Positions 47,267-64,000 of a DNA stretch of 64,000 nt are shown here, in pieces. A program made the translations under genes and the position numbers. Position 1 is the stretch's first letter, and every line of letters begins with the position of its first letter. The stretch spans positions 1,148,860-1,212,859 of the forward strand of contig CAWBPL010000002.1 of assembly GCA_963790805.1 (NCBI GenBank). The letters run 5' to 3'. Under the pieces are notes generated by a model. That model was not told the DNA's origin. It searched no databases and worked only from the letters and a program-made list of their open reading frames with translations. The stretch is from Candidatus Gottesmanbacteria bacterium (GTDB taxonomy: Bacteria > Patescibacteriota > Microgenomatia > UBA10105 > UBA927).

Positions 47267-47367
47267 AGACCACCCAAGTTTTACCAATAAAAAAAACGAT
47301 AACACCATTTGTTTACGCATTGGGATTACCAACAACGAGAACTTGGCATTACCGTAGTCCTAATTGA

Positions 47368-48048: not shown

Positions 48049-48737
48049 AGAAACTCCCTCCTTTTTAATTCCCACGACAGTGGATCATTAAACCACATGT
48101 CTACCGATTGTTTTTGCTCCTTCGTAATTTGACCGTGTCTGAACGCGCTTTCCGCAATGAGTCTTCCGGACGTAAGTGATAATAATGTAATCTGATGTTT
48201 TTTTAATAACTTACGGGATTGTTCTGTCTGATATGTGCTTGCGCAAATGCAATACTGTACAACCCCACCTTGTTCCCGAATGGTTTCTGCATTATCAACA
48301 GCGCTTGTCGCCGTTGAGATATGGTCTTCTATGATAATAACCCTACTTCCTTTTTTTAGATATCCCTCCATCTTATTTCCTTTTCCGTATGACTTTTTTC
48401 CTTGTCCCGCAAGCTTAGTAGTCGGTCGAACGAACACCAGCGGTAATTTTAGACGATCTGCCACCCAAGCACCCATAGGAATTGCCGTCGTGGCCGTTGC
48501 AGAAATCCAATCGACATTGGTAAGCCAGATTTTTTTTCTTATCGTCTCAATGTAATAATCAATAAACTGATTTCTGACAGAAACATACGACATTACCAGA
48601 CGATTATCAATGTATACCGGACTTTTCAATCCTGATGTGTAGGTATAGGGCGGATTAAACCGGAAGCTGAATGCCCGAATCTGTAAGAGCAGCTGAGCTG
48701 CGTGATCTGCAATTACTTTGTCATATATTTCACTCAT
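48045..48737 (-). CDS. pyrE: Orotate phosphoribosyltransferase
   Basis: FRFNPPYTYTSGLKSPVYIDNR and PRT loop VIIIEDHISTATS. Confidence 0.75.
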   Translation of the reverse strand: MSEIYDKVIADHAAQLLLQIRAFSFRFNPPYTYTSGLKSPVYIDNRLVMSYVSVRNQFIDYYIETIRKKIWLTNVDWISATATTAIPMGAWVADRLKLPLVFVRPTTKLAGQGKKSYGKGNKMEGYLKKGSRVIIIEDHISTATSAVDNAETIREQGGVVQYCICASTYQTEQSRKLLKKHQITLLSLTSGRLIAESAFRHGQITKEQKQSVDMWFNDPLSWELKRREFL

Positions 48738-48758
48738 ATGTATTTTACGTTTTTTTGA

Positions 48759-49775
48759 TTAGGGCCGCCGCTGATCTGGCGTCGGGAAAACAGGCCGTAC
48801 CCAGATATAGTCATCAACATGCTTAAGCCATAAAAATGAAGAATGATCCTTAAAATTTTGGGTGTGTAGATTGAGCTTCTCCGCTGCATATCTCAAAATA
48901 GCTTGCCCAAGTTGTTTTTGTATTGGTTCCGGAATTTTATTCCAATCAGTACGGAATACGAAAGAAAGCAAAGCTTTTCCTTCGTCAGTCGGATCAAATC
49001 TCGTCTTTGTACCGCCTTCATCGAGCATAAATTCGTCAGATAACAAACTACGAACGTCAAGCGCCGAATCATAACTCGTGTCTTCGACAAAAGGCGGATC
49101 CAAGCGCTTAAGAGCTCTCATAACGTCATAACTTGACGTTTCCGTCTGACCGTTATGTAACAAGTCATTATAGAGCTGTCTCAATCGCCAAATTTCACTC
49201 CTCTCGCTTTGCAGTACGATAACTGCCGCGCCATTTCGTTTCTCAAGGCCGCTAATAATTTTTTGCAACGGGTCATTCGGGTTATTTCCCTCTTTCCATC
49301 CTGTTAAGTAATAAAACATATGAGAAGCGATGATCAGGTCCGAATGTGGCATATGATAATTTGTATCTTCAACCGTATGTATATCGAAATCTATATCCAG
49401 TTTGCTGAACGGGACCAATTTTCTCTTTTTTACCTCCGCAAAAAAGAGATTTCTCATTTCGGTAGAAGGATCTTCGCAATGAATATGAATGTCTTTATAT
49501 GTATCTGGCCTTCTGAATATTAATGCATGCTGCAGAAAGTTAAGCTCCATTTCGCCGTTTCCAACGCCCAATAACGTTATATGCACTTCATCATCTCCTA
49601 CCAAACGGTCAAAAATGTCATGTTGTTCATTTCGCAATTGAAAATCTATAGTCCATTCCTCGCTATGTTTCTGATTGGTCATGTGCTGAAATACGTCCCA
49701 TCGATGAAGCTGTGTTCTGAAAGCCGCCAAAAGGCCAGTGCCATCCGATCCCTGAGGTTCGACGTTAACATTCAT
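48759..49775 (-). CDS. Hypothetical protein with class I methyltransferase-like motifs
   Basis: ITLLGVGNGEME (motif I-like), HIHCEDPS and DLIIASHMFYYL. Start moved to the Met at 49775, which abuts the upstream stop. Confidence 0.45.
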   Translation of the reverse strand: MNVNVEPQGSDGTGLLAAFRTQLHRWDVFQHMTNQKHSEEWTIDFQLRNEQHDIFDRLVGDDEVHITLLGVGNGEMELNFLQHALIFRRPDTYKDIHIHCEDPSTEMRNLFFAEVKKRKLVPFSKLDIDFDIHTVEDTNYHMPHSDLIIASHMFYYLTGWKEGNNPNDPLQKIISGLEKRNGAAVIVLQSERSEIWRLRQLYNDLLHNGQTETSSYDVMRALKRLDPPFVEDTSYDSALDVRSLLSDEFMLDEGGTKTRFDPTDEGKALLSFVFRTDWNKIPEPIQKQLGQAILRYAAEKLNLHTQNFKDHSSFLWLKHVDDYIWVRPVFPTPDQRRP

Positions 49776-50428
49776 ACGCCCTTTTGTTTCTGTTTTTCCT
49801 CTAAATATTGTTTGCCATACCCAACCATCGTATCGATCGGGATGCCCTCTTTGCACATCGGACAAAGCTCCTCATCGTAGGCGGGAAAATTAAACGTCGC
49901 TAAGGAATAAAACGGAACCTCTAACATTTCTGACGTTACATTGATCTGATCACGGTTAACCATAGAACAAGCTGCCACGATCCTTCCTCCAGCCTCTTTA
50001 ACGCATTCAATAACTTTTTTAATGGAGCCACCGGTCGTTGTAATATCCTCAACAATCAAAATTCTTTTTCCTCGGACAAACTTTTCATATCCGCGCTTGA
50101 GTATCTGCTTTAACTCAGGCGTTTTATCCGTATACACTCCGTAAATCTCTTTACCTTTCATCTTTGACAGATGAAATGCAGTCCATTGGGATAAAACTAT
50201 GCCGCCTAATGCGGGGCCAACAACAACATCAATTCTTTCATCTTTGAATTTTTCTGCAAATAGGCGACCGATTTTAAAGGACTCCTGCGTATGCGGATAC
50301 AGAGCGTCTTTATTGATGTAAACGCTCCCATGCTTTCGTGATGTATACACCAGATGCTTATCTGTAATAAACGCGCCCACTTTTTTTAAAATACGTATAA
50401 CTTCATCCTGCACTTCTTTATCATCCAT
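49772..50428 (-). CDS. Type I phosphoribosyltransferase (PyrE-like paralog) with a C-terminal CPMC motif
   Basis: VVGPALGGIVLS, ILIVEDITTTGGS, C-terminal ELCPMCKEGIPID. Confidence 0.75.
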   Translation of the reverse strand: MDDKEVQDEVIRILKKVGAFITDKHLVYTSRKHGSVYINKDALYPHTQESFKIGRLFAEKFKDERIDVVVGPALGGIVLSQWTAFHLSKMKGKEIYGVYTDKTPELKQILKRGYEKFVRGKRILIVEDITTTGGSIKKVIECVKEAGGRIVAACSMVNRDQINVTSEMLEVPFYSLATFNFPAYDEELCPMCKEGIPIDTMVGYGKQYLEEKQKQKGV

Positions 50429-50438
50429 AGAACCTCCT

Positions 50439-51263
50439 TTATGCATTTCTATATCTATTAATTTCTTCTTTTAGTTTTATCGCTTCCGCGCGGGCTTTCT
50501 GGGCAAAATCGGCGCCACTTGATGCAAAAATGACGCTTCGGCCGACGTTAATAATAGCTCCTGTTCCTTTGGAGTCAATTCCAGCTTTTGTCGTTTTTTG
50601 CACATCGCCGCCTTGCGCACCAATTCCTGGAATGAGGATAGGCATATCGCCAACCAGACGTCGTACAATTGCCAACTCTTCGGGGTAGGTTGCTCCGACT
50701 ATTAATCCACAATTCATGTTGTAATTCCAGCTTTTTGCAACATTTTTTGCAACTACCTGATAGAGAGGTTTACCGTTTATCATTAAATCCTGAAACTCAC
50801 CTGCTCCGGGATTTGACGTTCTGCATAATATCAAAATTCCCTTCTCTTTCTGATCCAGAAATGGTTTCAATGCCTCACCCCCTAAATAAGGTTGAAGCGT
50901 CACTGCGTCTGCTCCTAAATAGTCAAAAATGAATTTTGCGTACCCGATGTTTGTGTTACCGATATCCGCGCGTTTAGCATCAACGATAATAACGGCCGCG
51001 GCATAATGTTCCTTCAGATAATCACACGTCGTTTTCATTTCTTTAACGCCATCTGCTCCCTGTGCTTCATAAAAAGCCGTATTGAGCTTATATGCACAGA
51101 CTAAATCCTGCGTTGCATAAATTATGGCTTTGTTAAACGTCGATTGCGGATGTGGGCCAACTCGTATCTTCTCAGGGATTTTATCAATGCCGCAGTCAAG
51201 TCCCACGCAGAGCAGTGAATTGTTTTTTGCTACGATCGCATCCAATTTTTGGCGAAAGGTCAT
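50439..51263 (-). CDS. pyrF: Orotidine-5'-phosphate decarboxylase (type 2)
   Basis: LCVGLD...IIVDAKRADIGNT...PGIGAQGG. Confidence 0.9.
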   Translation of the reverse strand: MTFRQKLDAIVAKNNSLLCVGLDCGIDKIPEKIRVGPHPQSTFNKAIIYATQDLVCAYKLNTAFYEAQGADGVKEMKTTCDYLKEHYAAAVIIVDAKRADIGNTNIGYAKFIFDYLGADAVTLQPYLGGEALKPFLDQKEKGILILCRTSNPGAGEFQDLMINGKPLYQVVAKNVAKSWNYNMNCGLIVGATYPEELAIVRRLVGDMPILIPGIGAQGGDVQKTTKAGIDSKGTGAIINVGRSVIFASSGADFAQKARAEAIKLKEEINRYRNA

Positions 51264-51841
51264 CGTTTCCTCCTTTTAATTTCGGTCAAAACGCGCTCAA
51301 CAAGTATTTCCGGAGAATTCTCAAAAAAGACAACGGCTTTATTAGGTTTTTGAATCTTTACATGAAGTTCGCGCAACCCGTCAGCTACGCCGCCCGTTCC
51401 GGTTAATACACCAATTACTTTTTCCATGTCATACAGATTTGTGAACTCATTCATAGTCCCCCATCTGCCTGACACGACAATTCCACCGTCGCAACTGGCC
51501 GTCGACATGACATTGCGATATTTTTTTCTGGCCATTTTATCGCCTGCTAACTCAAAACTTTTTGGAACGTAAATCAGTTTTGCATATATCGCTAAATCCA
51601 TATTGGGGTAAGCTTTCTCATGCTCCGCTTTCGATAGCTCGGGAGAAAATCCCCAAATCTCAATTGGTTCTACCAAACTCGCAGCTTGAGCCACTTCATA
51701 CGGCACGCCTGCACATGCGCCGGTTATAAGAATTACCGATTCCCGATACTTCCCAAGTTCGACGCCAAGGCTTTTAGCTATGTTTGTTGCCTTAGGAGAT
51801 TCATTAACCGCGGAACCAAAAACACCGATTTTGAATTTCAT
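51260..51841 (-). CDS. LOG / TIGR00725-family Rossmann protein (putative nucleotide phosphoribohydrolase)
   Basis: IGVFGSA...ITGACAGVPYE...SGRWGTMNE (compare PGGxGTxxE). ATGA overlap with pyrF. Confidence 0.65.
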   Translation of the reverse strand: MKFKIGVFGSAVNESPKATNIAKSLGVELGKYRESVILITGACAGVPYEVAQAASLVEPIEIWGFSPELSKAEHEKAYPNMDLAIYAKLIYVPKSFELAGDKMARKKYRNVMSTASCDGGIVVSGRWGTMNEFTNLYDMEKVIGVLTGTGGVADGLRELHVKIQKPNKAVVFFENSPEILVERVLTEIKRRKR

Positions 51842-51976
51842 TTTTATCGTATACCTTTCTAAAAAATCACGAGATCGACTTTTTTATTGCTCCATCTATA
51901 TTTTGTCGAAAATTCATAGTTTTATCGCTTCCTCTGGCGCTAAAACCTTAAGAGTGCTAACTTTCCGACAAGCGTA

Positions 51977-53287
51977 TTATCTGACCGCTTTGTCAAATTC
52001 CGATTCGCTCATCAATTTTTTGCCAACAACAATCTCTCGGATTGGTTTGTCAGCTTTTATCGACTCTTTTACGGCATCACTGACAACATCATAACCCAAA
52101 ATCGGTGTAAGTAAAGTAGCATACGCTGTCGAGCGTTCTAAAAGCTCACGGCATCGCTTTTCATTGGCTTTTATCGTACCCACGCACCGTTTTGAAAATT
52201 GAACCAACACTTCGCGCGTAAGTTTGAGGGAACTGATAAGAAAATCAGCGAGCACCGGAAACATATTCGCCAACTCCAGAAACGATGCATGGGCTGCATG
52301 CTCGACTGTAAGGTTGTTACCGGAAACCGTAAAATATAATTGATTCACAGCTTCAGGCAATATGGGATTCACCTTACCCGGCATGATGGACGACCCCGGC
52401 TGAAGCGGTTCAAGTTGTATTTCACCAAGCCCTCCTGCCGGACCGCTTGCCATCAGACGAAGGTCATCGGCAATTTTTGATGCGTCAAGCGTAAGGGCGA
52501 CCAGCGTTTGAGAAAGGCTTACAAAATCCGTCTGACTGCTTGTTTGAGACATGAGATTATTTGCGGGTCTCAGTGCAAACCCCGTTATCGCACATAGCTC
52601 GATATATACGGCTTTTCTATATGCTTCTTTAGCATTAATTGCGTTACCAACTGCCGTTCCGCCGAGATTGAGTTCCAAACATAATGTTAAAGACTGAGCC
52701 ACTTTCTTCACGTCCCGCTCTAGCGAAGCGGCATATGCGGCAAATTCTTCACCCAATGTGATAGGTACGGCGTCTTGCCAATGCGTCCGGCCCAACTTGC
52801 GCACAGTAGCAAACTCTTTTGCTTTCGCATTAAAAATGCGAACACATTCAGTCATATCTTTCAACAGCGCTTTCCCCAAGCGAAGACAAACGATTTTAAG
52901 AGCCGACGGGTTCACGTCATTTGTTGACTGAGCCATATTCACATGATCATTGGGGTGCACAATAATCTTTTTCCCCTGTGCTGCAAGCAACTCCGTAGCG
53001 CGTGCAGCCAATACTTCGTTCACGTTCATATTAATAGACGTCCCTGCTCCTCCTTGAAGCGACGGGAGAACAAGCTGGTCATCAAACATACCGGACAGAA
53101 GCTCGTCAGCTGCTTTGTCAATCGCGTCCGCAATATCGTTTGGCAAATCACCTATTTTGCCGTTAGCACGTGCTGCTGCTTTTTTAATCTGTGCGATGGC
53201 GTAAAACAATTCTTTGTGCACAGGAGAAGCCGAAAATGGAAAATTTTCGCGCGCCAATAGTGTTTGCTTACCGATGTATTGTTTCAT
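51977..53287 (-). CDS. aspA: Aspartate ammonia-lyase (aspartase)-like class II fumarate-lyase
   Basis: GSSIMPGKVNP signature. QGGAGTSINMNVNEV is the aspartase-type motif rather than the GSGTQ of fumarase. Confidence 0.75.
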   Translation of the reverse strand: MKQYIGKQTLLARENFPFSASPVHKELFYAIAQIKKAAARANGKIGDLPNDIADAIDKAADELLSGMFDDQLVLPSLQGGAGTSINMNVNEVLAARATELLAAQGKKIIVHPNDHVNMAQSTNDVNPSALKIVCLRLGKALLKDMTECVRIFNAKAKEFATVRKLGRTHWQDAVPITLGEEFAAYAASLERDVKKVAQSLTLCLELNLGGTAVGNAINAKEAYRKAVYIELCAITGFALRPANNLMSQTSSQTDFVSLSQTLVALTLDASKIADDLRLMASGPAGGLGEIQLEPLQPGSSIMPGKVNPILPEAVNQLYFTVSGNNLTVEHAAHASFLELANMFPVLADFLISSLKLTREVLVQFSKRCVGTIKANEKRCRELLERSTAYATLLTPILGYDVVSDAVKESIKADKPIREIVVGKKLMSESEFDKAVR

Positions 53288-54639
53288 GAGACTCCTTTCT
53301 TAAGCCATTTACCCATATGATTGCCAACGATAGAACCATGTTCATACACAAGCTCCCCCCGCAAAAATGTTGCATGAGGGCGTCCGATAAGCTTCATCCC
53401 TTCATAGGCTGACCATTGAAGTTTTGTCAATAAATCTTTTTTTTGCACCACCCATTCATGATCAACGTCAAGGATAACGAAATCAGCGTCGTTACCGGAA
53501 ACGATGCCGGATTTTTGCGGAAAACCGAAAAATTGAGCAACGTTTCCGGCAGCACACCGCGCAAGAGTCACAAGACTTTTTTCAATGGTCTTTTTTCCGA
53601 ATCTCTTTACCCAACCGGTTATAAAAGCGGGAACCGTCTCCTGCAATCCGGGTGTTCCACTCGTAACTTTCCATATATCACCTTGTTTTTCCTCAAGCGT
53701 ATGCGGCGTATGTTCGGAACAGATACCATCTACTTTACCATCATAAACCATTTCCCAAAGTTCTTTGTTCACCGCGGGGGTACGCAACGCTGGGCTGACT
53801 TTTATGAGCGTCCCCAATTTCTTGTAATCCTCCGTAGTGAAAAACAACTGATATCCTGTTACTTCCCCTCCTGCTTTTATACCATGCTTTCGTGCATAAG
53901 AAATTGCATCAAATTCCCCCCTCGTACTGGCGTGAAGAATCCATACCGACGTGCCATAATATTTGGCCAAAATAACAGCTTCCCATGCAGCCATCTCAAC
54001 AACCAGCTCATTGCGCGCTTCAGAATAGGCTAACATATCGTTTCTGCCTGTCGCCTCAAACATTTTCTCACGACTGGTAACGAGATCCTGATTTTCCGCA
54101 TGAACCATAAGGGGTATATGGCGTCTTGATACAATCTCCCAGATTTTTGCCTGATCAGAAAGCTTGGGAATTGTCGTGGGGGTGGTTTGATGCCCTGCTG
54201 TAAAAACTTTCACCGCAGCTATCTCGGTCGGGTCAATTTTTTCCAGTTGGGGAATATCGTCAACAGAAGTGCCCATGTTTATGGCAAAATCACAGTATGA
54301 TTTTGCTGTATACCGGTTGATTTGTTCGTGGACTAAATCAACTGTGGTAATGGGAGGCTTTGTATTAGGCATATCGAAAATCGTCGTAAATCCTCCAGCA
54401 AGACCAGCTCTGGTTCCGTGTTCAATGTCCTCTTTATATTCCATGCCGGGTTCTCGTAAATGTCCATGAGTTTCGATAAGACCGGGAAGCACGTACGAGT
54501 CACCCGCGTCATAAACGTTATCACCGCTTATAATTTTATTGGTAACTTCTCCAATGGTCCCATCTTTTTTAATCGTTACCGAACCGCGCCGTATGCCGGT
54601 CGGAGTTATAAATCTTCCATTGCGTATAGCTTTATACAT
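53284..54639 (-). CDS. pyrC: Dihydroorotase (type I, amidohydrolase)
   Basis: ETHGHLREPG (HxH), AAVKVF (carbamylated Lys), VHAE, HAST. The usual ATDHAPH motif reads CSEHTPH here. Confidence 0.85.
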   Translation of the reverse strand: MYKAIRNGRFITPTGIRRGSVTIKKDGTIGEVTNKIISGDNVYDAGDSYVLPGLIETHGHLREPGMEYKEDIEHGTRAGLAGGFTTIFDMPNTKPPITTVDLVHEQINRYTAKSYCDFAINMGTSVDDIPQLEKIDPTEIAAVKVFTAGHQTTPTTIPKLSDQAKIWEIVSRRHIPLMVHAENQDLVTSREKMFEATGRNDMLAYSEARNELVVEMAAWEAVILAKYYGTSVWILHASTRGEFDAISYARKHGIKAGGEVTGYQLFFTTEDYKKLGTLIKVSPALRTPAVNKELWEMVYDGKVDGICSEHTPHTLEEKQGDIWKVTSGTPGLQETVPAFITGWVKRFGKKTIEKSLVTLARCAAGNVAQFFGFPQKSGIVSGNDADFVILDVDHEWVVQKKDLLTKLQWSAYEGMKLIGRPHATFLRGELVYEHGSIVGNHMGKWLKKGVS

Positions 54640-54640
54640 A

Positions 54641-55303
54641 TTATTTCTTCACAATTTCAAGTGCTTGATCAATCGGAACGCCTCGCGGGCAAAGAGCTGC
54701 GAGATGTTTTACTTCATCTCCCCCATACGATAACGAGCCAGCGCTCGAAGCAAGAATCTTGCGCTCTACCCCATCCCGAGGATCAGTCATAAAACGAGCG
54801 ATTTTGACAAGTGCCATGGGATCAAGCATCCCCTGAGGATCCTTAGCAACTGATGGCGACCCTGCTATACAGCAGCCGCACTCTATACATTTCCGGAAAG
54901 GCTTTGATGTATCAGCATCATGCTTTGTAAGCATTACGGCATGAATTTTATCCAAATACGGACGAATCTTTTTATACCGTTCCAATACAGGCATTATATT
55001 AACGATGAGGTCTTTTTCAACAGGAAAATTTGCAAGCGGCTCAATGACCTGTTTATCGAGAGATGGATCAACCGGAGTGGAACAGGACAGCACAGGTTTT
55101 CCGTTATACGTTAAACCGCACGTTCCGCAAATTCCCTGACGGCATTCATACCGGAATGCAAGCGTCGGATCAAGTTTTTGCTGCACGAGCAAAACTACAT
55201 CCAACAATGTCATACCTTTATTATATTCAAGATTGTATGTATCAAAATGAGGTCTCTCTCGTACAACCGAATCGTATCGATAGATAGAAAATGTTAATTT
55301 CAT
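54641..55303 (-). CDS. Succinate dehydrogenase/fumarate reductase-like Fe-S subunit (2Fe-2S plus 4Fe-4S, 3Fe-4S ligands absent)
   Basis: CRQGICGTCGLTYNGKPVLSC (C-x4-C-x2-C-x11-C). CIECGCCIAGSP has Ser where the 3Fe-4S Cys sits. The second motif is reduced to ...HLAALCPRG. Confidence 0.8.
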   Translation of the reverse strand: MKLTFSIYRYDSVVRERPHFDTYNLEYNKGMTLLDVVLLVQQKLDPTLAFRYECRQGICGTCGLTYNGKPVLSCSTPVDPSLDKQVIEPLANFPVEKDLIVNIMPVLERYKKIRPYLDKIHAVMLTKHDADTSKPFRKCIECGCCIAGSPSVAKDPQGMLDPMALVKIARFMTDPRDGVERKILASSAGSLSYGGDEVKHLAALCPRGVPIDQALEIVKK

Positions 55304-56970
55304 ACTGTTGTTATTGGAACGATATTCAGTTTAAATTTTTTACCGGATTTTTGTACAATAATGTTCTTTTCCCAATCTCTGTTCATTTCTGGAAAATCAG
55401 TACGGCTATTCGCGCCCCTGCTTTCTTTGCGAAGTAATGCGGCTTCAATAACCGCTTGAGCTGTAACTAGCATATTGCACACTTCCAAACAGTCCTGCAA
55501 GTCCCTGTTTCTATAGGATTGACCAAACCGAGCGCGCATATGAGGGGCACGTTGAAGCAACTTTACTACCACACTTTTAGCCTTCTTCAGACTCGTTTCG
55601 TCCCGAAAAATTCCTACATTATTCCACATTGCTTTTTTCAATTCCTGCTCAATGATATGAGGCGGTTCTCCATCCTTACGTGAAATAAATCCGCCAATGC
55701 GACCAATCTCTTTTTTGACATCATCTATGGGCACTGCATCCTCATTTTTAACCTTTCCCACGTCACCAAGAGCGCCAAGAGCGGCCCGTCTTCCAACAAC
55801 CTGTCCTTCAGCGATAGAATTACCTCCTAATCTGTTGGCACCATGAATCCCGCCGACAACTTCTCCCGCCGCATATAAACCGGCCACGGAAGTTCTGCCC
55901 CAAACATCTATTTTTAATCCTCCCATCATGTGATGCATTGATGGGTACACTTCCATTGATTCTTTCGTTATATCAACACCGACGTTTTTGTATTGCTCAT
56001 AGACATCAGGAATCTGCTCTAATATTTTCTTTTTCGAAAGATGAGTGACGGAAAGGTACACTGCGTGATGTTTGTTTCCTCCGCCCGACGCAACTTCCTG
56101 ATAAATGCTTCTGCTTACTTCATCACGCTTGGCAAGCTCCATCTCCTTTGGAAAATATCGTTTCATGAAACGTTCACCGTCTTTATTGAGAAGTATTCCA
56201 CCCTGCGCTCTCACTTTTTCCGTTACCAGTACCCCGCGGCTTGAAGGAGGATATGCCATACCCGTAGGGTGAAACTGCACCATCTCCATATCAACCAAAT
56301 CCGCACCGGCATCCAGTGCCATAGCATATCCGTCCCCCGTATTTGAGGCCGCATTGGTTGTTACTTCATACATTCGTCCAGCCCCTCCTGTTGCCAGAAT
56401 CACTGCATGAGTCTGAAATACAACGTATTTGCCCGATTTCAAATTAATACCGATTGCTCCTGAGACCCTATTATCATTTTTCAAAAGCTTACTGACAAAA
56501 AACTCATCCGAGTAGGGAATGTGTAACTTCCTCGCTTGGTCAACTAAACCCTGCATCATTTCTCTACCTGTATAATCACCAACACAAATATTGAGGGGAT
56601 ATTTCTGCTTCGGGCCGCTCCAAACGTAAAAATCACCGTGATCTTTTCTATCAAATATCACTCCATACGTTTCAAGGTCCCTCACCCGATCGGGCATTTC
56701 TTCGGTAAACGCCTTTACCAGAGGCATGTTGTTAATGCCATACCCGCCTTCAATGGTAATTTCAGCGTGAAATGCCGGTGTCGCAGGGGGCTCAACAGCA
56801 GCGTTCATTCCCCCCATAGCCATACCGGTATGTGCACAACCCAATACTTCCTTCCCCAGCAAAAAAACATCGGCTCCCTGCGCTTTTGCTTCAATTGCAG
56901 CGCGAAGCCCCGCTCCACCCGCGCCGATAACTAAAATATCCGTCTTTATCTGATCAAATGATTGATCCAT
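55300..56970 (-). CDS. Succinate dehydrogenase/fumarate reductase-like flavoprotein subunit
   Basis: DILVIGAGGAGLRAA, AHTGMAMGG (FAD-His motif), QFHPTG, TEKVRAQGG, HHMMGG, GANRLGGNS. Confidence 0.85.
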   Translation of the reverse strand: MDQSFDQIKTDILVIGAGGAGLRAAIEAKAQGADVFLLGKEVLGCAHTGMAMGGMNAAVEPPATPAFHAEITIEGGYGINNMPLVKAFTEEMPDRVRDLETYGVIFDRKDHGDFYVWSGPKQKYPLNICVGDYTGREMMQGLVDQARKLHIPYSDEFFVSKLLKNDNRVSGAIGINLKSGKYVVFQTHAVILATGGAGRMYEVTTNAASNTGDGYAMALDAGADLVDMEMVQFHPTGMAYPPSSRGVLVTEKVRAQGGILLNKDGERFMKRYFPKEMELAKRDEVSRSIYQEVASGGGNKHHAVYLSVTHLSKKKILEQIPDVYEQYKNVGVDITKESMEVYPSMHHMMGGLKIDVWGRTSVAGLYAAGEVVGGIHGANRLGGNSIAEGQVVGRRAALGALGDVGKVKNEDAVPIDDVKKEIGRIGGFISRKDGEPPHIIEQELKKAMWNNVGIFRDETSLKKAKSVVVKLLQRAPHMRARFGQSYRNRDLQDCLEVCNMLVTAQAVIEAALLRKESRGANSRTDFPEMNRDWEKNIIVQKSGKKFKLNIVPITTV

Positions 56971-56972
56971 GG

Positions 56973-57911
56973 TTATTTATGTAATACAAGAGATAACAGT
57001 GCCATCCGCACAAACATGCCGTTTTGCATTTCCTCCCGAAGGTATACAGCACGCGGATCAGCATCTACTTCCTTTTCTATCTCTGCTACTCTGGGAAACG
57101 GGTGCATAACAATTGCGTCCTTCTTTAGATTCTTCATCGTGTCGCGCGTTATGACAAAACGGTCCTTCAGTTTTTCATACACATCCAGATTGTTAAACCG
57201 CTCTTTTTGCACCCGCGTCACATACAGAACATCGGTTTGATTTAAAAAATCGTTCAGCTCTTCGCGTTCATCAACTCCAACTCCCAAAGATTTAATTTTA
57301 CCCACGATATCGACGGGCATCCGCAATTCAGGCGGAGCGACAAGATAAATTGCTTTTGGTTTATAAAGTAATAACAATGTAGTAAGAGAATGAACCGTAC
57401 GGCCGTTGAGAAGATCACCGACGAGTGTTATCGTTCGTCCGTCAACAGAGCCGAAATGGTCCATAATCGTAAACATATCCAAAAGTGCCTGCGTTGGATG
57501 TTCGCCGATGCCATCTCCCGCATTAATAATCGGCTTATCGCAAACATCGGCGGCAATCTTTGCTGCACCAACCATAGGATGGCGAAGAACGATAACGTCC
57601 GAAAAACTCGAGAATGTCTGTATCGTGTCCTCAAGAGTTTCGCCTTTCGCGACAGAGGAGTACGTTACTCCTTGAAGCGGTATAAACCCGCCGCCAAGCC
57701 GCTGGATAGCAGCTACAAATGATCCGAAGGTTCTGCTTGATGGTTCATAAAAAAGCGCTGTCATAATTTTTCCGTGTAGTTCATTGGAAGCGCCTTCTTC
57801 TTTGACGAGACGCCGCATTTCTCCTGCTTTTTTTATAACTTCGGCTACATCGGAAGCATCAAACTGTGCGGCCGAGAGAATATCGGATTGAAAAAATTTG
57901 TTTTGCTTCAT
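56973..57911 (-). CDS. pyrB: Aspartate carbamoyltransferase catalytic subunit
   Basis: EPSSRTFGSF, HPTQALLD, HPFPR. No pyrI follows. Confidence 0.9.
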   Translation of the reverse strand: MKQNKFFQSDILSAAQFDASDVAEVIKKAGEMRRLVKEEGASNELHGKIMTALFYEPSSRTFGSFVAAIQRLGGGFIPLQGVTYSSVAKGETLEDTIQTFSSFSDVIVLRHPMVGAAKIAADVCDKPIINAGDGIGEHPTQALLDMFTIMDHFGSVDGRTITLVGDLLNGRTVHSLTTLLLLYKPKAIYLVAPPELRMPVDIVGKIKSLGVGVDEREELNDFLNQTDVLYVTRVQKERFNNLDVYEKLKDRFVITRDTMKNLKKDAIVMHPFPRVAEIEKEVDADPRAVYLREEMQNGMFVRMALLSLVLHK

Positions 57912-57919
57912 ATTCCTCC

Positions 57920-60900
57920 TTATTGGTACTCACTCCATGCTACTATGTTAAGATCTTTGAGGGAATAGCGAGACATAGATTCCACAAATAATCGGGCAGA
58001 TTCGGCATTCGTAAATATAGGAATCCCTAAATCGATTGACATACGCCGCATATGATATCCGTCTGACAATCCCTTTTCAACCTGGGACCTCACCGCATCG
58101 GTAAAACGCTCAGGAAGTACAACTGAAAATCCGATTGTTTTTTCTTTCAACAGGTCAGCGTAGTTCGGATGCTTGCTTTCGTGTAGCTTTTCAACGCGAT
58201 GAGACGGGATTCCGTTACTTTCTAAAAACGCATGCGTTCCGAAGGTGGCATAGAGCGTATATTTCATATCAATAAGCGTTTGAGCCGCCGACAAAAACAG
58301 CTGTTTCCCCTCATCTCCCCCTAAGCTTAAAAAGACAGCTTTCTTCTGCGGATACTGCGTACCGGTTGCAAAAAGAGATTTTAAATAGGCTTCATAAATG
58401 TCTTTACCAAATGCCGCAACTTCACCAGTCGAGCTCATCTCTACGCGAAGGACGGGATCTGCTCCACGAAGACGGCGGAACGAAAACTGCGGGACTTTAA
58501 CCGTCACGTGGTGAAGCGCCTCAGGCTTAATTGGAGCAACCTTCTTCCCTAATGCAATATCCGTTGCTATCGTGATAAAATTATTCTTCATTGCTTTGCT
58601 GACAAAGGGTATGCTTCGGGATGCCCGAAGATTGCATTCAATCACATAGGGATCGCCTTTGTAAACGAGAAATTGTATATTAAATGGCCCCGTAACTTTC
58701 AGCGCTCGTATGATTTGAGACGCCTTTTCTTTAATTGTTGATTGCATTTCCAATGAAAGTGAGTAAGCAGGCAATACGAGCGTTGCGTCGCCGGAATGAA
58801 CTCCGCCTTTTTCAACATGCTCGGATAATGCATAGATTATAAGCTTTCCGTTATCACTAACTCCGTCAAAATCGCATTCAATCGCACCGCGCAAAAATCT
58901 GGTCATAACCAATGAATACTCTCGCATGTGACTATCCGCCGCCTTTAAATACTCGCGTAATTGTTCTTCCGTTTCTATAACAAGCATCGCTTTGCCGGAA
59001 AGGACAAACGACGGCCTGATAAGGACGGGAAAACCGATTCGCTTCGCTTCGCGAATGGACTGTTTTTCTGTATGTGCCTCGCTCCAATAAGGCTGTGCGA
59101 TCTTAAGTTTGTCGAGAAGTCCGCTAAATATGCTCCTGTCTTCCGCCTGAACGATAGTCTTCGCGTTTGACCCCAAAAGCGGAATTTTGCGCGCATCGAG
59201 TTTCGGAGCCAAATTATTAGGAATCTGACCCCCGACTGAAACGACGAATGGTGATTTCTCAATATCGTAAATATCTAAGACTCTCTCAAGACTTAATTCT
59301 TCAAAATACAAATAATCAGTTATATCGTAATCCGTTGATACGGTTTCAGGATTACAATTCACCGTTACCGTCTTTTTACCGTCCGCCCGAAGACGCGCTA
59401 CCGTATTGACTGCACACCAGTCGAATTCTACGGATGTTCCAATTGAATACGGTCCGCCGCCAAGAACGATCACTTTTTCTTCTTTTGGATCTGCTCTATG
59501 GTCAGATTGGGTTGCGGCATAGGTCATATACAAATAGTTTGTTTTTGCCGGAAACTCACCGGCCATAGTATCAATGCGCTTTACTGCCGGCAGAATACCC
59601 ATGGTTTTTCGAATAGAACGCACTTTATCCTCTGAAGTATTTCTGACCCAGCCGATTTGCTTGTCTGAAAAGCCCTGCCGTTTTGCGTCTTTAAGAAGAA
59701 CGCTTGTTAGTTTTTTACTCTGCTTAAGTTGTTTATACGTGTCCACGATCCGGCGAAGACAAGCTAAAAACCATGGGTCAATTCCGGTAAGCGAATATAT
59801 TGTCTCAATGGTCATTCCCTTTGAAAGGGCGGATCCGATTGCAAACAGCCGTTTTGCGTCGGGTTCTTTCAGCCGGCGCCGGAGCGAATTGATATCATAT
59901 TCCATCTCCTGCTCATCAATCACGCCTTCATAGCCCTGATTAAGCATCCGTACGGCTTTCTGTATCGCTTCCTTAAAGGTTCTTGCTATACTCATTACTT
60001 CACCGACGCTTTTCATTTCGCTGCCGATATGTAAATCCACGTTCGTATATTTCTCAAGATCCCATCGCGGAATTTTAACGACGACGTAATCAAGCGCCGG
60101 TTCAAAAAAAGCTGATGTTTGCCCAGTTACGGAATTTTTCAGTTCAGGAAGTTTTTTCCCAATGGCGAGTTTTGCCGCAATATACGCAAGCGGATAGCCG
60201 GTGGCCTTTGAGGCAAGCGCACTGGAACGGGAAAGTCGTGCATTTACTTCAATAATGCGGTACTCACCATTTTTAGGATTTAAAGCGTATTGAATGTTAC
60301 ATTCCCCGACGATCTTCAACTCCCGGATCGTATCAATGGCAATTTGGCGAAGCCCGTAATATTCTTCATTGGTAAGCGTCTGTGAGGGCGCGATAACTAT
60401 GGATTCGCCGGTATGAATTCCAACCGGATCAAAATTTTCCATATTACAAACGGTAATACAATTATCATCCGTATCGCGTACAACTTCATATTCGATCTCT
60501 TTCCATCCGTACAAACATTCTTCAATGATTACCTGTGATGATGTTGCAAACGCGTTGGTAAGAAGTGTTTGAAGCATCTTTTTGTCCGAAGCAACACCGC
60601 TCCCTGTGCCCCCGAGCGCAAAACCCGTTCGAAGCATGACAGGGTACCCTAGTTTTTGCGCGTATTTCATGCCCTCTTCCACGCTGTAAGCGATTTTTCC
60701 CGTGGCGGTTTTTAGCCCAATGCTATGAAGTCGTTTTGCAAACAGTTCACGATCCTCAGTGTCAATCACCGTTTGAATGGGCGTTCCCAACACTTCGACG
60801 TTATATTTTGTAAAAATTCCGCGTTTATGGAGCTCTATGCCGCAATTCAGAGCAGTCTGTCCTCCGAAAGATAAAAGAATGCCGTCAGGTTTTTCTTTTT

Positions 60901-61126
60901 CAATAACCCGCGTTACAAAATCAGCGGTAACTGGAAGAAAATAAATCTCGTCGGCAAGTCCCTTCGATGTCTGAATGGTCGCAATATTGGGATTTACCAG
61001 TATAATTTTCTTTCCTTCTTCCTTCAACGCTTTAATAGCCTGAGTTCCTGAATAATCAAACTCACCGGCTTCGCCTATCTTAAGCGCTCCGGAACCTAAT
61101 ATGAGTATTTTTTGTATTGTTTTCAT
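57920..61126 (-). CDS. carB: Carbamoyl-phosphate synthase large subunit
   Basis: Duplicated ATP-grasp halves, ILILGSGALKIGEAGEFDYSG. ATGA overlap with carA when the start is set at 61126. Confidence 0.95.
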   Translation of the reverse strand: MKTIQKILILGSGALKIGEAGEFDYSGTQAIKALKEEGKKIILVNPNIATIQTSKGLADEIYFLPVTADFVTRVIEKEKPDGILLSFGGQTALNCGIELHKRGIFTKYNVEVLGTPIQTVIDTEDRELFAKRLHSIGLKTATGKIAYSVEEGMKYAQKLGYPVMLRTGFALGGTGSGVASDKKMLQTLLTNAFATSSQVIIEECLYGWKEIEYEVVRDTDDNCITVCNMENFDPVGIHTGESIVIAPSQTLTNEEYYGLRQIAIDTIRELKIVGECNIQYALNPKNGEYRIIEVNARLSRSSALASKATGYPLAYIAAKLAIGKKLPELKNSVTGQTSAFFEPALDYVVVKIPRWDLEKYTNVDLHIGSEMKSVGEVMSIARTFKEAIQKAVRMLNQGYEGVIDEQEMEYDINSLRRRLKEPDAKRLFAIGSALSKGMTIETIYSLTGIDPWFLACLRRIVDTYKQLKQSKKLTSVLLKDAKRQGFSDKQIGWVRNTSEDKVRSIRKTMGILPAVKRIDTMAGEFPAKTNYLYMTYAATQSDHRADPKEEKVIVLGGGPYSIGTSVEFDWCAVNTVARLRADGKKTVTVNCNPETVSTDYDITDYLYFEELSLERVLDIYDIEKSPFVVSVGGQIPNNLAPKLDARKIPLLGSNAKTIVQAEDRSIFSGLLDKLKIAQPYWSEAHTEKQSIREAKRIGFPVLIRPSFVLSGKAMLVIETEEQLREYLKAADSHMREYSLVMTRFLRGAIECDFDGVSDNGKLIIYALSEHVEKGGVHSGDATLVLPAYSLSLEMQSTIKEKASQIIRALKVTGPFNIQFLVYKGDPYVIECNLRASRSIPFVSKAMKNNFITIATDIALGKKVAPIKPEALHHVTVKVPQFSFRRLRGADPVLRVEMSSTGEVAAFGKDIYEAYLKSLFATGTQYPQKKAVFLSLGGDEGKQLFLSAAQTLIDMKYTLYATFGTHAFLESNGIPSHRVEKLHESKHPNYADLLKEKTIGFSVVLPERFTDAVRSQVEKGLSDGYHMRRMSIDLGIPIFTNAESARLFVESMSRYSLKDLNIVAWSEYQ

Positions 61127-62190
61127 TTTTTGAGCAGTGAAAATATCCAATTCGTATCAAACGGCCCTGGACTGCCTTCTGGATGAAACTGCGTACTCCA
61201 GATTTTACGATCAGAATTCTGTAATCCTTCATTGGTACCATCATTAAGGTTTACAAACCATTCTGTAAATCCCCTCGGAAGAGTTTCACGCTTTACTGCA
61301 TACCCGTGATTTTGGCTCGTAACATACGCTTTATTAGTGATTGTATCGCGGCAGGGCTGATTTAAGCCTCTGTGCCCGTAGGGTAATTTATAGGTATCGG
61401 CGCCGATGGCGAGTGCCACCAGCTGATGCCCCAGACATATGCCCAAAAATGGAATATTTGCTTTGATAACTCGTTGTATATGTTCTACTGTTATCGCGCA
61501 ATCTTTTGGATCACCCGGCCCGTTTGAACAAACCACTCCATCAATACCTGCTATGTGCTTCATCGGATCTTCATCCCAAGGAATTCTTAGAACTTCATAA
61601 CCGTTCACCAATAACTCACGCAGGATTCCGTGTTTCACACCGCAGTCGATAAGAAGTATTCGTTTGCCGAACGATTTTATTGGCTTATAGGCTATAACTT
61701 CTGGCAAACTCACTTTAGAAACGAGGTTTTTAAGCACAGAGTCATCGAAATGATACCCTTTTGTTCTTGATATTGCGCCAAGCATGACTCCTTTTTCCCG
61801 AAGTTTCAAGGTTAATGCACGCGTGTCAATATGGGAGATAGCTGGCACTTTTTGGCTTTTAAGCCACGAAGACAACGAAACTTCCATCTGATAATGCGAC
61901 GGGGTCTCAAGATGAGATGAGACAACGACACCCTGCACTTGAATCCGCTCAGATTCAAAATTTTTCATGAGGTGGGAATACTGATATATCGGCTTTGGCA
62001 CTCCGTAGTTTCCGATAAGCGGATAGGTAAACACCAGTATCTGGCTTGCAAATGACGGATCAGTCAAACTTTGGGGATATCCCGTCATTCCGGTCGAAAA
62101 TACGACTTCACCACACGAATCGCCGTCATATCCGCAGCTTAAACCCTCAATACTCGTACCGTCTTCTAGATGTAAATAGATTTTTTGCAT
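61123..62190 (-). CDS. carA: Carbamoyl-phosphate synthase small (glutaminase) subunit
   Basis: GICLGHQ catalytic Cys and QFHPE. 355 aa. Confidence 0.95.
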   Translation of the reverse strand: MQKIYLHLEDGTSIEGLSCGYDGDSCGEVVFSTGMTGYPQSLTDPSFASQILVFTYPLIGNYGVPKPIYQYSHLMKNFESERIQVQGVVVSSHLETPSHYQMEVSLSSWLKSQKVPAISHIDTRALTLKLREKGVMLGAISRTKGYHFDDSVLKNLVSKVSLPEVIAYKPIKSFGKRILLIDCGVKHGILRELLVNGYEVLRIPWDEDPMKHIAGIDGVVCSNGPGDPKDCAITVEHIQRVIKANIPFLGICLGHQLVALAIGADTYKLPYGHRGLNQPCRDTITNKAYVTSQNHGYAVKRETLPRGFTEWFVNLNDGTNEGLQNSDRKIWSTQFHPEGSPGPFDTNWIFSLLKK

Positions 62191-62273
62191 AAAAAAGGCC
62201 CCTTATGGGCCTTGATGCTAATTTTATATGGATGGATAATTCGGCAAATCAAAATAATATTCCTTTCAATCAT
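62166..62273 (-). CDS. Candidate 35-aa leader peptide of the pyrimidine operon
   Basis: AGGAG-taacga-ATG. Encodes MIERNIILICRIIHPYKISIKAHKGPFLCKKSIYI*. It reads through the terminator hairpin and 25 nt into carA in another frame. Confidence 0.35.
   Translation of the reverse strand: MIERNIILICRIIHPYKISIKAHKGPFLCKKSIYI
62191..62213 (-). terminator. Intrinsic-terminator hairpin abutting the carA start codon (candidate pyr attenuator)
   Basis: Minus strand AAGGCCC-auaag-GGGCCUU-UUUU-AUG. The 3' arm contains the carA SD (AAGGGG, 8 nt from the AUG). Confidence 0.6.
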
Positions 62274-62292
62274 TCGTTACTCCTGAACTAAT

Positions 62293-62321
62293 AGTCTACG
62301 AATCTGACATTTTTCTGTCAA
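62293..62321 (-). promoter_or_regulatory. Promoter of the pyrimidine operon
   Basis: Minus strand TTGACA-17 nt-TAGACT, followed directly by the 12-mer ATTAGTTCAGGA (62292-62281), which recurs at 62379-62368. Confidence 0.55.
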
Positions 62322-62499
62322 GAAGGAATCTGGGTGGTGATCCAGCCACAACAAGGGACATATGATATCCTGAACTAATCGACGATGGCTTGACGCGCTC
62401 TTCATAGCCCCTCACTAAGCATAACCAGACTCTTTCCTCTCGTGATATGAATTGTAAATTTGCAGCCTAGGTGTATAATCTCGGTGTATATGATGGCAT

Positions 62500-63525
62500 T
62501 TGTTAAATGAACGCTATTTTGGTATCTCCTACGATGCTGAAATAATCTCCATTATGATAAAAAAATTCAAAAAATTAGTAGTCTTTGATAATGTCCTTCT
62601 CACTCCCCAACATAGAGAGCGATTAATACAATCGGCTGAGATAGTCAAATTCTATCCCAAGACAGAAGACCAATCCGTTATAAAAGAACAAATCAGAGAT
62701 GCAGACGCGGTCATTAATTGTTGGACCGTTATTACTGAAGAATCATTAAAAGGGAGTTCGGTAAAATATATCGGGAATTGGGGCCATTGGTGGAAACATA
62801 GGATTACCCTCAGTGAACAACGGCTAAAAGAACTGGGAATTTATCTTGACTATATTCCTGACTACGGCACTGATGCTGTTGCTGAGATTGTGTGGGCTGG
62901 AATTTTATCCCTTGCCAGAAATTTCGAACGGTGGCATAAAGATGCCGCAACAGGAAAATGGGTCTTTGAAAATATAAAAAACGGACAAAAACAAGTTGAT
63001 ATCGCAAACGTCTCCGAACATTTAATTACCGGCAAGACCTTAGGGATTGTCGGTATGGGCAGAATTGGTTATCGTGTAGCACAAATAGGCATAAATGGTT
63101 TTGGTGTGAATGTGTTATACAACTCAAGAACGAGAAAAAAAGAATTGGAAGGCGAAAATTTCCAATACGTTTCCCTACCCGAGCTTTTTCGCCAAAGCGA
63201 CATCATTTCCGTCCATGTCTCACCTGACACCCCGAAATATCTGATCTCCAAAAAACTTCTGGAATCCATGAAGCCAGGAGCTATTTTCGTCAATACGAGT
63301 ACCGGCAATTCAATCGATCAGACAGCACTTGTTGAGATTCTAAAGAAAGGAAAAATCAAAGCGTTTTTGGACGTGTATGAACAATTTCCGCCAAGAAAAG
63401 AATTGAAAGATTTACCCAACGTCATTTTCACCTATCGGCTTGGTTGGTTTACGACGGAATCTCTCCAACGAAAAGCTGGTATTCTGGTTTCAAATATTGA
63501 AAAATATTTGGAAAAAAAACATTGA
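62500..63525 (+). CDS. D-isomer-specific 2-hydroxyacid dehydrogenase family protein
   Basis: GKTLGIVGMGRIGYRVAQ NAD-binding motif. The true start is possibly the Met at 62554. TTGTAA-16-TATAAT promoter at 62452-62479. Confidence 0.8.
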   Translation: MLNERYFGISYDAEIISIMIKKFKKLVVFDNVLLTPQHRERLIQSAEIVKFYPKTEDQSVIKEQIRDADAVINCWTVITEESLKGSSVKYIGNWGHWWKHRITLSEQRLKELGIYLDYIPDYGTDAVAEIVWAGILSLARNFERWHKDAATGKWVFENIKNGQKQVDIANVSEHLITGKTLGIVGMGRIGYRVAQIGINGFGVNVLYNSRTRKKELEGENFQYVSLPELFRQSDIISVHVSPDTPKYLISKKLLESMKPGAIFVNTSTGNSIDQTALVEILKKGKIKAFLDVYEQFPPRKELKDLPNVIFTYRLGWFTTESLQRKAGILVSNIEKYLEKKH

Positions 63526-63529
63526 CTTC

Positions 63530-63910
63530 ATGAAATTCCAAAAAATTTCCACAATCCTTATTTGGTCCGAAAACTACAAACCACTCGCAGATTGGTATCA
63601 ACATACATTCGATTTGAAGATAGAAAAAACAATCAATCATCCGATGGACACCGGAGTGCGCTTTGAATTTCCGGATGGCGGCGTGGGACTCTGGGTCGGT
63701 GCTCACTCCAAAGTAAAAGGCAAAAACCGCGAACCTGACCGAATAATGTTTAATATTACCGTGGATTCGGTCCAAGCTGCGTATGAAGAATTAAAACGGA
63801 AGGGGGTCACATTTTTTGCGACTCCTTTCAAGGCACCGACGATGGAAAAATATTGCGCAACTTTGTACGATCCTGATGGAAACCTCATTCAGATTTTTGG
63901 ATCAAAATAA
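63530..63910 (+). CDS. Glyoxalase/VOC-family protein
   Basis: About 126 aa with a paired beta-alpha-beta-beta-beta pattern and the C-terminal end DPDGNLIQIF. Start moved to MKFQK. Confidence 0.65.
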   Translation: MKFQKISTILIWSENYKPLADWYQHTFDLKIEKTINHPMDTGVRFEFPDGGVGLWVGAHSKVKGKNREPDRIMFNITVDSVQAAYEELKRKGVTFFATPFKAPTMEKYCATLYDPDGNLIQIFGSK

Positions 63911-64000
63911 GCTGATGATGACTACTCTTCACCGGTTTTCGCTTCTTTACATTACTCGCTAAAGCCGCGTCTTCATCACTATGCCACCCTACTGAGGTAT

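Follow-up and report, generated by a model that had tools for sequence, protein, structure and literature searches.

A candidate ribosome-dependent attenuator in the leader of a carA-led pyrimidine operon from a Gottesmanbacteria contig

How do bacteria of the Candidate Phyla Radiation (CPR, or Patescibacteria), about whose gene regulation we know of almost nothing, control the synthesis of their pyrimidines? The question is raised by a 64-kb stretch of contig CAWBPL010000002.1 (the window) from an uncultured, ultra-small bacterium of Candidatus Gottesmanbacteria, in which carA, the first gene of a 13-gene pyrimidine operon, is preceded by a leader of ~95 nucleotides (nt) containing a short open reading frame (ORF) and an intrinsic terminator. 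Sequence anatomy, conservation, and geometry together point to a ribosome-dependent attenuator of the pyrBI or rph-pyrE kind controlling the carA-led operon, with a probable operator at its promoter, a reading to which we assign a probability of about 0.55. It is most likely a known kind of switch that is not yet described in this group. All leader and operon coordinates are window positions, and elements are on the minus strand unless stated; comparison loci, which are the carA or pyrB regions of relatives, are labeled L### or P####, and the features of the window are collected in Table 1.

The element nearest to carA is the terminator. Its hairpin (AAGGCCC-ATAAG-GGGCCTT, 62213-62195) has 7 bp, of which 5 are G-C, has a stability of -11.6 kcal/mol, is present in both the minimum free energy and centroid folds, and is followed by a T6 run (62196-62191) that directly abuts the carA ATG at 62190, just as an earlier model-made annotation of the window (the sequence-only reading) had described. 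The U-run and the ATG leave no space between them for a promoter, and carA thus depends on read-through; because the gene upstream of carA is divergent, the hairpin cannot be the terminator of that neighbor. A leaderless promoter hidden in the U-run was considered and rejected, the GCCTTT at -12 to -7 being no -10 box. The minus strand of the window contains only two strong terminator-like sites, both of them in 5' leaders of nucleotide-biosynthesis operons, the second lying 24 nt before purF. A hairpin with a U-run recurs 0 to 14 nt before the first pyr gene in L006, L007/L063, L064, L067, L123, L126, L016, and L110, and the terminators of the window and its relatives range in stability from -8 to -13 kcal/mol. 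The stem shared by L123, L126, L006, L007, and L064 (AAGAGCC/GGCTCTT) is homologous to and aligns with that of the window (AAGGCCC/GGGCCTT), in which two base pairs are replaced without loss of pairing (G-C for A-U and C-G for G-C); outside the Gottesmanbacteria-type loci the hairpins are non-homologous.

The leader ORF begins with an ATG at 62273, ends with a TAG at 62168-62166, and codes for a 35-amino acid (aa) peptide (MIERNIILICRIIHPYKISIKAHKGPFLCKKSIYI) with 10 isoleucines (Ile); the AGGAG Shine-Dalgarno (SD) sequence and the Ile-rich ORF crossing the hairpin are present as previously reported. Ile richness as a signal is not borne out by the relatives, whose leader peptides are not Ile-rich, and the peptide sequence is not conserved among them. 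The placement of the ORF recurs, with an ATG-initiated ORF of at least 10 codons ending no more than 10 nt from the hairpin foot, or beyond it, in every one of the 10 independent leaders compared. The ORF of L123 and L126 is 22 codons long; its ATG follows CAAGAG, at the position equivalent to that following CAGGAG in the window, and its stop codon, TAA, shares the opening bases of the hairpin; the stop codon is at the hairpin foot (-1 to -4 nt) in L006, L064, L016, and L067. The ORF runs through the hairpin in the window, L007, L125, L110, and the leader of a purine operon within the window (described below), and in L007 it ends 14 nt past the ATG that lies downstream of the U-run. This sequence comparison places the window in the pyrBI type, its ORF passing through the terminator, and many relatives in the pyrE type, with a stop at the foot.

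Daviesbacteria-type loci, in which the operon begins with pyrB, provide a larger set. About 30 distinct leaders carry the terminator (G)ATCCGCC-AATG-GGCGGAT(T)-T8 positioned 8 to 16 nt before pyrB, with the leader ATG 11 to 13 nt past the -10 in most, an ORF of 12 to 26 codons, and a stop codon that nearly always falls between -9 and +7 nt relative to the hairpin foot (at -2 in 12 of them). The frame of the ORF contains 0 stops in 27 distinct leaders, and the other two frames contain 52 and 65 stops and are closed in 25/27 and 26/27 leaders. These ORFs show no codon-position periodicity, as judged by third-position bias; because the frame is always open and periodicity is absent, selection acts on openness of the frame rather than on the peptide. 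A conserved small protein as the product of these ORFs was rejected on the same lack of periodicity. A T run of at least 4 is present in 21/27 leaders, most often ending 23 to 25 nt before the hairpin, and RNAalifold recovers the terminator alone, with 2 covarying pairs and no antiterminator. A covariance model (R1) built from 28 of these leaders finds 9 further Daviesbacteria-type loci (3e-10 to 4e-4), with L016, L067, and L009 borderline. The window shares the architecture of this family, with a promoter, an early ATG, a 12- to 35-codon ORF reaching a terminator, a U-run, and the first pyr gene.

The window leader likewise offers the terminator as its only stable structure, and the fold of the whole leader is no better than those of shuffled sequences (z -0.6). 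No stable antiterminator is found in the whole-leader fold, in the leader truncated before the 3' arm (-6.9 kcal/mol), or in a fold in which the 5' arm was barred from pairing. The layout had been likened to UTP-sensitive attenuation as in pyrBI, and the promoter, the ORF reaching the terminator, and the absence of an antiterminator agree with that comparison, but specificity for UTP is unsupported.

In the mechanism that we propose, transcription would start ~8 nt after TAGACT, the distance at which -10-like boxes peak ahead of leaderless ATGs in this genome, with A62284 the predicted position, and the ~95-nt leader would open with a strong ribosome-binding site and the 35-codon ORF and close with the terminator and its U-run touching the carA AUG. 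By default the hairpin would form and transcription would stop at ~62191-62195; a ribosome translating the leader ORF close behind RNA polymerase would cover the 5' arm of the hairpin and permit read-through into carA, with no need for an antiterminator RNA. That ribosome would also melt the hairpin covering the beginning of carA, and translation of the leader may likewise open this start, given that the AUG is abutted by the hairpin with its U-run and that the ORF ends 22 nt within carA. What the switch senses is probably how fast RNA polymerase moves compared with the ribosome: with pyrimidine nucleoside triphosphates (NTPs) in short supply, polymerase would be delayed at U runs and in the C-rich 5' arm, as it is in E. 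coli pyrBI and rph-pyrE. Because the leader is so short, a polymerase pause would be needed for the ribosome to be in place. Candidate pause sites are the T-runs of the leader, including T4 and T3 runs at 62254-62246, and the switch from the C-poor ORF (6% C) to the C-rich 5' arm, and the tract at 62245-62261 is a possible pause region; this tract had been singled out as U-rich, and it is present but is unexceptional and merely A+U-rich. Pyrimidine NTPs are suggested as the signal by the genes under control, and a general polymerase-versus-ribosome speed signal is equally possible, since the purine operon has a similar leader and the window leader has no U bias.

A second layer of control would probably be provided by a repressor acting at the promoter. 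The promoter, TTGACA-17-TAGACT, lies ~95 nt before carA, matches the consensus at 10/12 positions, and is the top minus-strand promoter match in 61000-64000. The form TTGACA-17-TA[GT]A[ACG]T is found before carA in the Gottesmanbacteria-type loci L002, L003, L004, L005, L123, L124, L126, and L065, with -10 variants at equal spacing that include TAGAAT, TATAGT, and TATACT, and although the promoter is kept, the sequences upstream of the -35 are unrelated among these loci. Judged by its conservation where the flanks diverge, the promoter proposed by the sequence-only reading is real. That reading did not mention an inverted repeat, TTGACA-N6-TGTCAG, which covers the -35 and part of the spacer and occurs at a single site in the window. 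TGTCAG is at the same spacer position in L002, L003, L123, L124, and L126, and in the degenerate form TGTCTG in L004. Because these half-sites are conserved and the 6 nt between them vary freely across loci, the repeat bears the signature of a protein-binding site, and it is a candidate repressor site. A palindrome with the same TGTC/GACA half-site letters in the opposite arrangement, TTGTC-N5-GACAA, overlaps or adjoins the carA promoter region at L009:2895-2925 (TCTTTGTCATAATGACAAAGA) and ~40 nt before carA in L029 (AATTGTCTAAATGACAATT).

Table 1. Coordinates of leader elements and operon genes in the window
Feature	Position	Strand	Remarks
Upstream copy of 12-mer ATTAGTTCAGGA	62368..62379	-	87 nt from downstream copy; role unexplained
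-35 hexamer TTGACA	62316..62321	-	Pyr-operon promoter
Inverted repeat TTGACA-GAAAAA-TGTCAG	62304..62321	-	Covers -35 and spacer; candidate repressor operator
-10 hexamer TAGACT	62293..62298	-	17-nt spacer from -35
Downstream 12-mer ATTAGTTCAGGA	62281..62292	-	Discriminator and putative initially transcribed region
Shine-Dalgarno AGGAG	62280..62284	-	7 nt before leader ORF ATG
Leader ORF, 35 codons and TAG	62166..62273	-	Crosses terminator; ends 22 nt inside carA, out of frame
A/U-rich tract AATATTATTTTGATTTG (AAUAUUAUUUUGAUUUG)	62245..62261	-	Inside leader ORF
Intrinsic terminator (putative attenuator)	62191..62213	-	Stem AAGGCCC/GGGCCTT, loop ATAAG, T6 run
carA	61123..62190	-	First gene of 13-gene pyrimidine operon, which ends at upp (47416)
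TfrA/TfrB-like fumarate reductase flavoprotein and Fe-S pair	55300-56970, 54641-55303	-	Pyrimidine operon
Aspartate-ammonia-lyase-like gene	51977-53287	-	Pyrimidine operon
SLOG/TIGR00725 protein gene	51260-51841	-	Pyrimidine operon
368-aa ORF	48759-49865	-	No Pfam, NCBIfam, or PDB match

Several observations weigh against this reading. Among CarA relatives of 58 to 77% identity, the leader is absent from L002, L004, L005, L124, L065, L119, and P0002, and the closest relatives (72 to 77% CarA identity) are often without it. The carA ATG directly follows CAGG in L002, L004, L005, and L124, where the window has ~100 extra nt, and in L119 and P0002 carA comes after another gene; the leader of L118 is plain and SD-led, and the 104 nt examined upstream contain no terminator. 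An ORF that reaches the hairpin is obtained in 60% of shuffled window leaders and is thus not individually significant; dinucleotide shuffles of each of the ten leaders yield such an ORF in 14% to 80% of cases, for a product of ~0.002, which applies to a set of leaders picked after inspection. The leader is not enriched in U (33% U, 37% A), and the similarity of the purine operon leader argues against a UTP-specific sensor, such that the proposal of UTP as the signal is not sustained. Model R1 has no match to the window at E<=10, and the kinship of the window with the Daviesbacteria-type family is therefore architectural only.

The leader takes several further forms. An ORF with one hairpin is seen in the window, L006, L007, L064, L125, and L110; two tandem hairpins with the ORF between them in L123, L126, and L067; and a single start-proximal hairpin with U7 before carA in L003 and L009. 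On this sequence comparison the leader is evolutionarily labile, being gained, lost, and remodeled quickly. Lability lowers the confidence that every instance functions, and it also supplies independent replicates for comparing the ORF with the hairpin. The expectation that the leader would be conserved in relatives is thus borne out in part: the architecture is kept across the group, but the ORF sequence is not, and several of the closest relatives are leaderless.

Some of these loci also have a hairpin at the start site, with its 5' arm beginning at the predicted transcription start (ATCCCAGG..., CCAGAAC..., or CCCGTA...), namely L003:2960-3000, L123:1393-1432, L126, L009:2940-2965, L067:2905-2930, L006, and L064. 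It is followed by U7-8 in L003, L009, L067, L123, and L126, and its loop holds the start of the leader ORF in L123, L126, L006, and L064; the partner arm differs between loci, and pairing is kept. In the window there is a weak remnant only, UUCAG/UUGAA, of -2.3 kcal/mol. L126 has a ~140-nt insertion with inverted ends (GGTAGTAGAATTTCGAC...GTCGAAATTTCACTACC) ~150 nt upstream of its carA ATG (1501), and, as in several Daviesbacteria-type loci, its attenuator is separated from the first gene by an inserted small repeat element. In the contig of P0005 (ENA ERZ1426817), a called 34-aa gene ends 15 nt before a carA with 74% identity to that of the window, and this small gene may be another leader ORF of the window type.

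Of the other explanations, the one that survives best is translational control, in which the hairpin would mask the ribosome-binding region of carA (AAGGGG and the U-run), to be opened by leader ribosomes that then re-initiate. We regard it as unlikely to be the whole explanation, and it could coexist with attenuation. The hairpin, which stops 4 nt short of the carA AUG, holds the only SD-like sequence there, which agrees with the earlier placement of the carA SD within the hairpin in the window but is not conserved in relatives. The overlap of the leader ORF with carA, and the similar ending of the L007 ORF past its ATG, would suit re-initiation. In every relative, however, the hairpin is followed by a canonical U-run, which a purely translational operator would not need, and in most relatives the ORF stops at the hairpin foot, 25 to 35 nt before the gene, with no SD in the hairpin.

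It is also improbable that the terminator is stabilized or prevented by something acting in trans (an RNA-binding protein like PyrR, some other protein, or a small-molecule ligand), with the leader ORF incidental. PyrR-type control is the commonest form of pyr attenuation outside enterobacteria, and by our own comparison a conserved 5' motif of the relatives (AATCCCAGGAG) loosely resembles the PyrR loop consensus. However, no PyrR site is found at E<=10 in 62100-62520 or at gathering score in the window or 17 related loci; there is no PyrR homologue among the operon genes, in which the two extra phosphoribosyltransferases (PRTases) score as orotate phosphoribosyltransferase (OPRTase)-like and the other PRTase-family gene is Upp; no antiterminator or anti-antiterminator is conserved; and the ORF is maintained against stops. 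PyrR-dependent control is not supported, the leader having no PyrR site and the operon no pyrR gene. No Rfam family is found at gathering score in the window or the 17 related loci, and the sub-threshold matches within the leader, Phe_leader (20 bits; gathering 55), Atu_C8, and SraG, are driven by the terminator.

A comparably small chance is given to an absence of regulation, such that the leader is a constitutive element (a 5' stabilizer, a fixed partial terminator, or a tiny gene with its own terminator) with an ORF-hairpin geometry due to chance. Close relatives manage without a leader, the window ORF is not individually significant, and its peptide is not conserved. However, the dependence of carA on read-through, and the recurrence of the geometry in the 10/10 leaders and in ~30 Daviesbacteria-type leaders, would be unexpected. 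The general organization of gene starts in the window is also at odds with this explanation. SD-like sequences precede 11 of 54 long ORFs (about 20% of genes), chiefly internal operon genes, and TAnnnT boxes resembling a -10 lie 5 to 10 nt ahead of 13/38 ATG starts, compared to 10.5% of all ATGs, with a mode of 8 nt. With SD sequences rare and -10-like boxes enriched before ATGs, most first genes appear to be leaderless, and in a largely leaderless genome the 95-nt carA leader is exceptional; the two long leaders both have strong terminators and both precede nucleotide-biosynthesis operons. Start-site switching as in E. coli pyrC and pyrD, where initiation at the pyrimidines or purines of TTCAGG would set a 5'-terminal hairpin controlling leader translation or termination, is very improbable, resting on analogy with pyrC/pyrD and requiring a hairpin that in the window reaches only -2.3 kcal/mol, in spite of a conserved Y-Y-C-A-G-G start region and of hairpins beginning exactly there in L003, L067, L123, L126, L006, and L064 with U7-8 following in L003, L067, L123, and L126.

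The ribosome-dependent attenuator that we favor has its nearest counterpart in pyrBI, the details of which were reportedly set out by Turnbough and Switzer in 2008. Like the E. coli and Salmonella pyrBI leader, the window has a sigma-70-type promoter, a leader in the ~100- to 160-nt range, and an ORF passing through a terminator before the first pyr gene, and in both the ribosome, as proposed here for the window, blocks the hairpin without an antiterminator. The window differs in that the element precedes carA and would control a 13-gene operon, the U-run abuts the start codon, the ORF overlaps carA, the leader is not clearly U-rich, and the host is a CPR bacterium with mostly leaderless mRNAs. 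We treat the resemblance to the enterobacterial leader as analogous, not homologous. The pyrBI terminator is located inside its 135-bp leader gene (PMC4824070), and in E. coli termination falls from ~90% to <10% when the stop codon is shifted from 28 nt ahead of a terminator to 5 nt ahead of it, with a stop-to-terminator distance of >27 nt needed for maximal termination (PMC4824070). In the rph-pyrE system, pyrE expression is governed by how far the rph stop codon lies from the attenuator (PMC2784333); this design, with the stop near the hairpin foot, is that of the Daviesbacteria-type leaders and of L123, L126, L006, L064, L067, and L016. In E. coli the ORF ahead of the attenuator is the full-size rph gene, whereas here it is a dedicated ORF of 12 to 35 codons, and the window ORF crosses the hairpin rather than stopping before it.

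Other pyr and leader-peptide systems are more distant. PyrR-dependent attenuation, known from Bacillus and many Gram-positives and in a Thermus variant with a leader peptide, also uses an intrinsic terminator in the pyr 5' leader, but the window lacks a PyrR binding loop, an antiterminator/anti-antiterminator pair, and a pyrR gene in the operon. E. coli carAB is transcribed from tandem promoters (P1/P2) under the control of ArgR, PurR, RutR, PepA, IHF, and PyrH, together with UTP-dependent reiterative transcription at GUUUGC, and no attenuator is among the carAB controls in that review (PMC6245113). The gene pair is the same, and the inverted repeat suggests protein control at the window promoter, but in the window there is one promoter only, its start lacks a T-run, and an attenuator-like element follows. 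The trp, his, ilv, and phe attenuators share a short leader peptide followed by a terminator, which is located >20 nt from the leader stop codon (PMC4824070). They need alternative 2:3 and 3:4 hairpins, whereas the window has no alternative structure and its ORF reaches the hairpin. With no alternative hairpin and an ORF crossing the terminator, the leader does not fit an amino-acid leader-peptide attenuator, and its Ile richness does not extend to relatives.

The second leader of the window precedes the purF-led purine cluster, which comes after the pyrimidine operon, and spans 47396-47219, with the purF ATG at 47218. It has a promoter-like TTGACA-17-TATCCT (47396-47368), is structured (-42 kcal/mol, z -2.4), and contains a 26-codon ORF (MRKQMVLSFFLLVKLGWSSPAFDGAF, ATG at 47320) that holds a U8 run. 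Its terminator, AGCCCCG..CGGGGCT (47266-47246) with T5, lies 24 nt before the purF ATG and is crossed by the ORF, the TGA of which overlaps the U-run. The only Rfam similarity is Trp_leader-like and sub-threshold (24.5 bits; gathering 41).

The 12-mer ATTAGTTCAGGA has two exact copies in 64 kb, at 62292-62281 and 62379-62368, and no others. Both had been pointed out and both are present; the separation from the following ATG, given as 6 nt for each, is correct for the upstream copy but is 7 nt for the downstream one. The repeat is exactly 12 nt long, which exceeds all 500 shuffles, and it is not lengthened when the two contexts are aligned locally with gaps. The downstream copy corresponds to the conserved start region, where relatives have TTAATC[TC]CAGG or AAACATTCAGG, and the upstream copy has no promoter ahead of it and no counterpart in any relative, so the suggestion that the pair are operators or a duplicated leader start is not supported. 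A family of repeats was also rejected, as copies with up to 2 mismatches are no commoner than in most shuffles and are located within genes; TAGTTCAGGA is found in only 3/116 loci. The upstream copy may be left over from a rearrangement, serve as a substrate for slippage, or be a binding site. It sits between two divergent promoters, that of carA and a promoter-like TTGTAA-16-TATAAT (62452-62479, plus strand; 10/12) for a 2-hydroxyacid dehydrogenase gene (62500-63525).

The pyrimidine operon itself comprises 13 co-directional genes from carA to upp (47416-62190, minus strand), in accord with the operon size proposed by the sequence-only reading. It codes for carA, carB, pyrB, a pyrC-type dihydroorotase, a TfrA/TfrB-like fumarate reductase pair, an aspartate-ammonia-lyase-like gene, a SLOG protein, pyrF, two OPRTase-like genes, a 368-aa ORF, and upp, and has no recognizable dihydroorotate dehydrogenase gene. 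The CarA of the window is found on its own contig and on one other contig only, where the leader is identical, and the closest CarA outside this genome has 77% identity. Its relatives are in metagenome-assembled genomes (MAGs) of Gottesmanbacteria, Daviesbacteria, and other Microgenomates. Among the closest ones (record titles L001-L061), many were deposited as 'uncultured Gammaproteobacteria' or 'Pseudomonadales', labels that look unreliable because their carA genes and leaders group with Gottesmanbacteria and Daviesbacteria records. In many relatives a CBS-domain gene lies ahead of the carA promoter; a regulatory role for it was rejected, since the window has no such gene.

Daviesbacteria-type loci have two further features. 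In about 25 of them (for example L024:3056-3090, L029:3050-3090, and L084:3056-3090) a terminator-like hairpin, CCACCTCAGGGGAGGTGG with TTTTTAAT, is located inside the carA coding region and encodes TTSGEVVFN, with pairing kept by synonymous changes (for example CTACCTC/GAGGTAG and CCACTTC/GAGGTGG). It may be a translation-masked terminator, and carA of the window has no such hairpin. Small repeats also lie between the terminator and pyrB in L018, L030, L039, L084, L012, and L038, and several leaders of this type carry the palindromic unit GATTCTGGACAAGCCAGAATGACA.

No paper linking CPR bacteria or Patescibacteria to attenuators was found in the open-access literature. We suggest tentatively, and at somewhat less than even odds, that Microgenomates of the Gottesmanbacteria and Daviesbacteria types have an undescribed and fast-evolving family of leader-ORF/terminator attenuators on pyrimidine and apparently purine operons. 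These would lack an antiterminator, with the ORF stopping at the terminator foot or running through it, such that only a ribosome in contact with polymerase would prevent termination, and they would operate in organisms whose other mRNAs are mostly leaderless, accompanied by an operator conserved at the promoter and, in some lineages, by a start-site hairpin. If true, CPR bacteria would have their first defined cis-regulatory switch, which would speak indirectly for transcription-translation coupling in them and would indicate that some of these reduced organisms not only make their own nucleotides but regulate that synthesis. It would also be an instance of the 'repression without repressors' logic known from E. 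coli that has arisen independently. With a stop before the hairpin, in its loop, or after it, or with no leader at all, the leader family is a natural variant series for the control of intrinsic termination by ribosome position.

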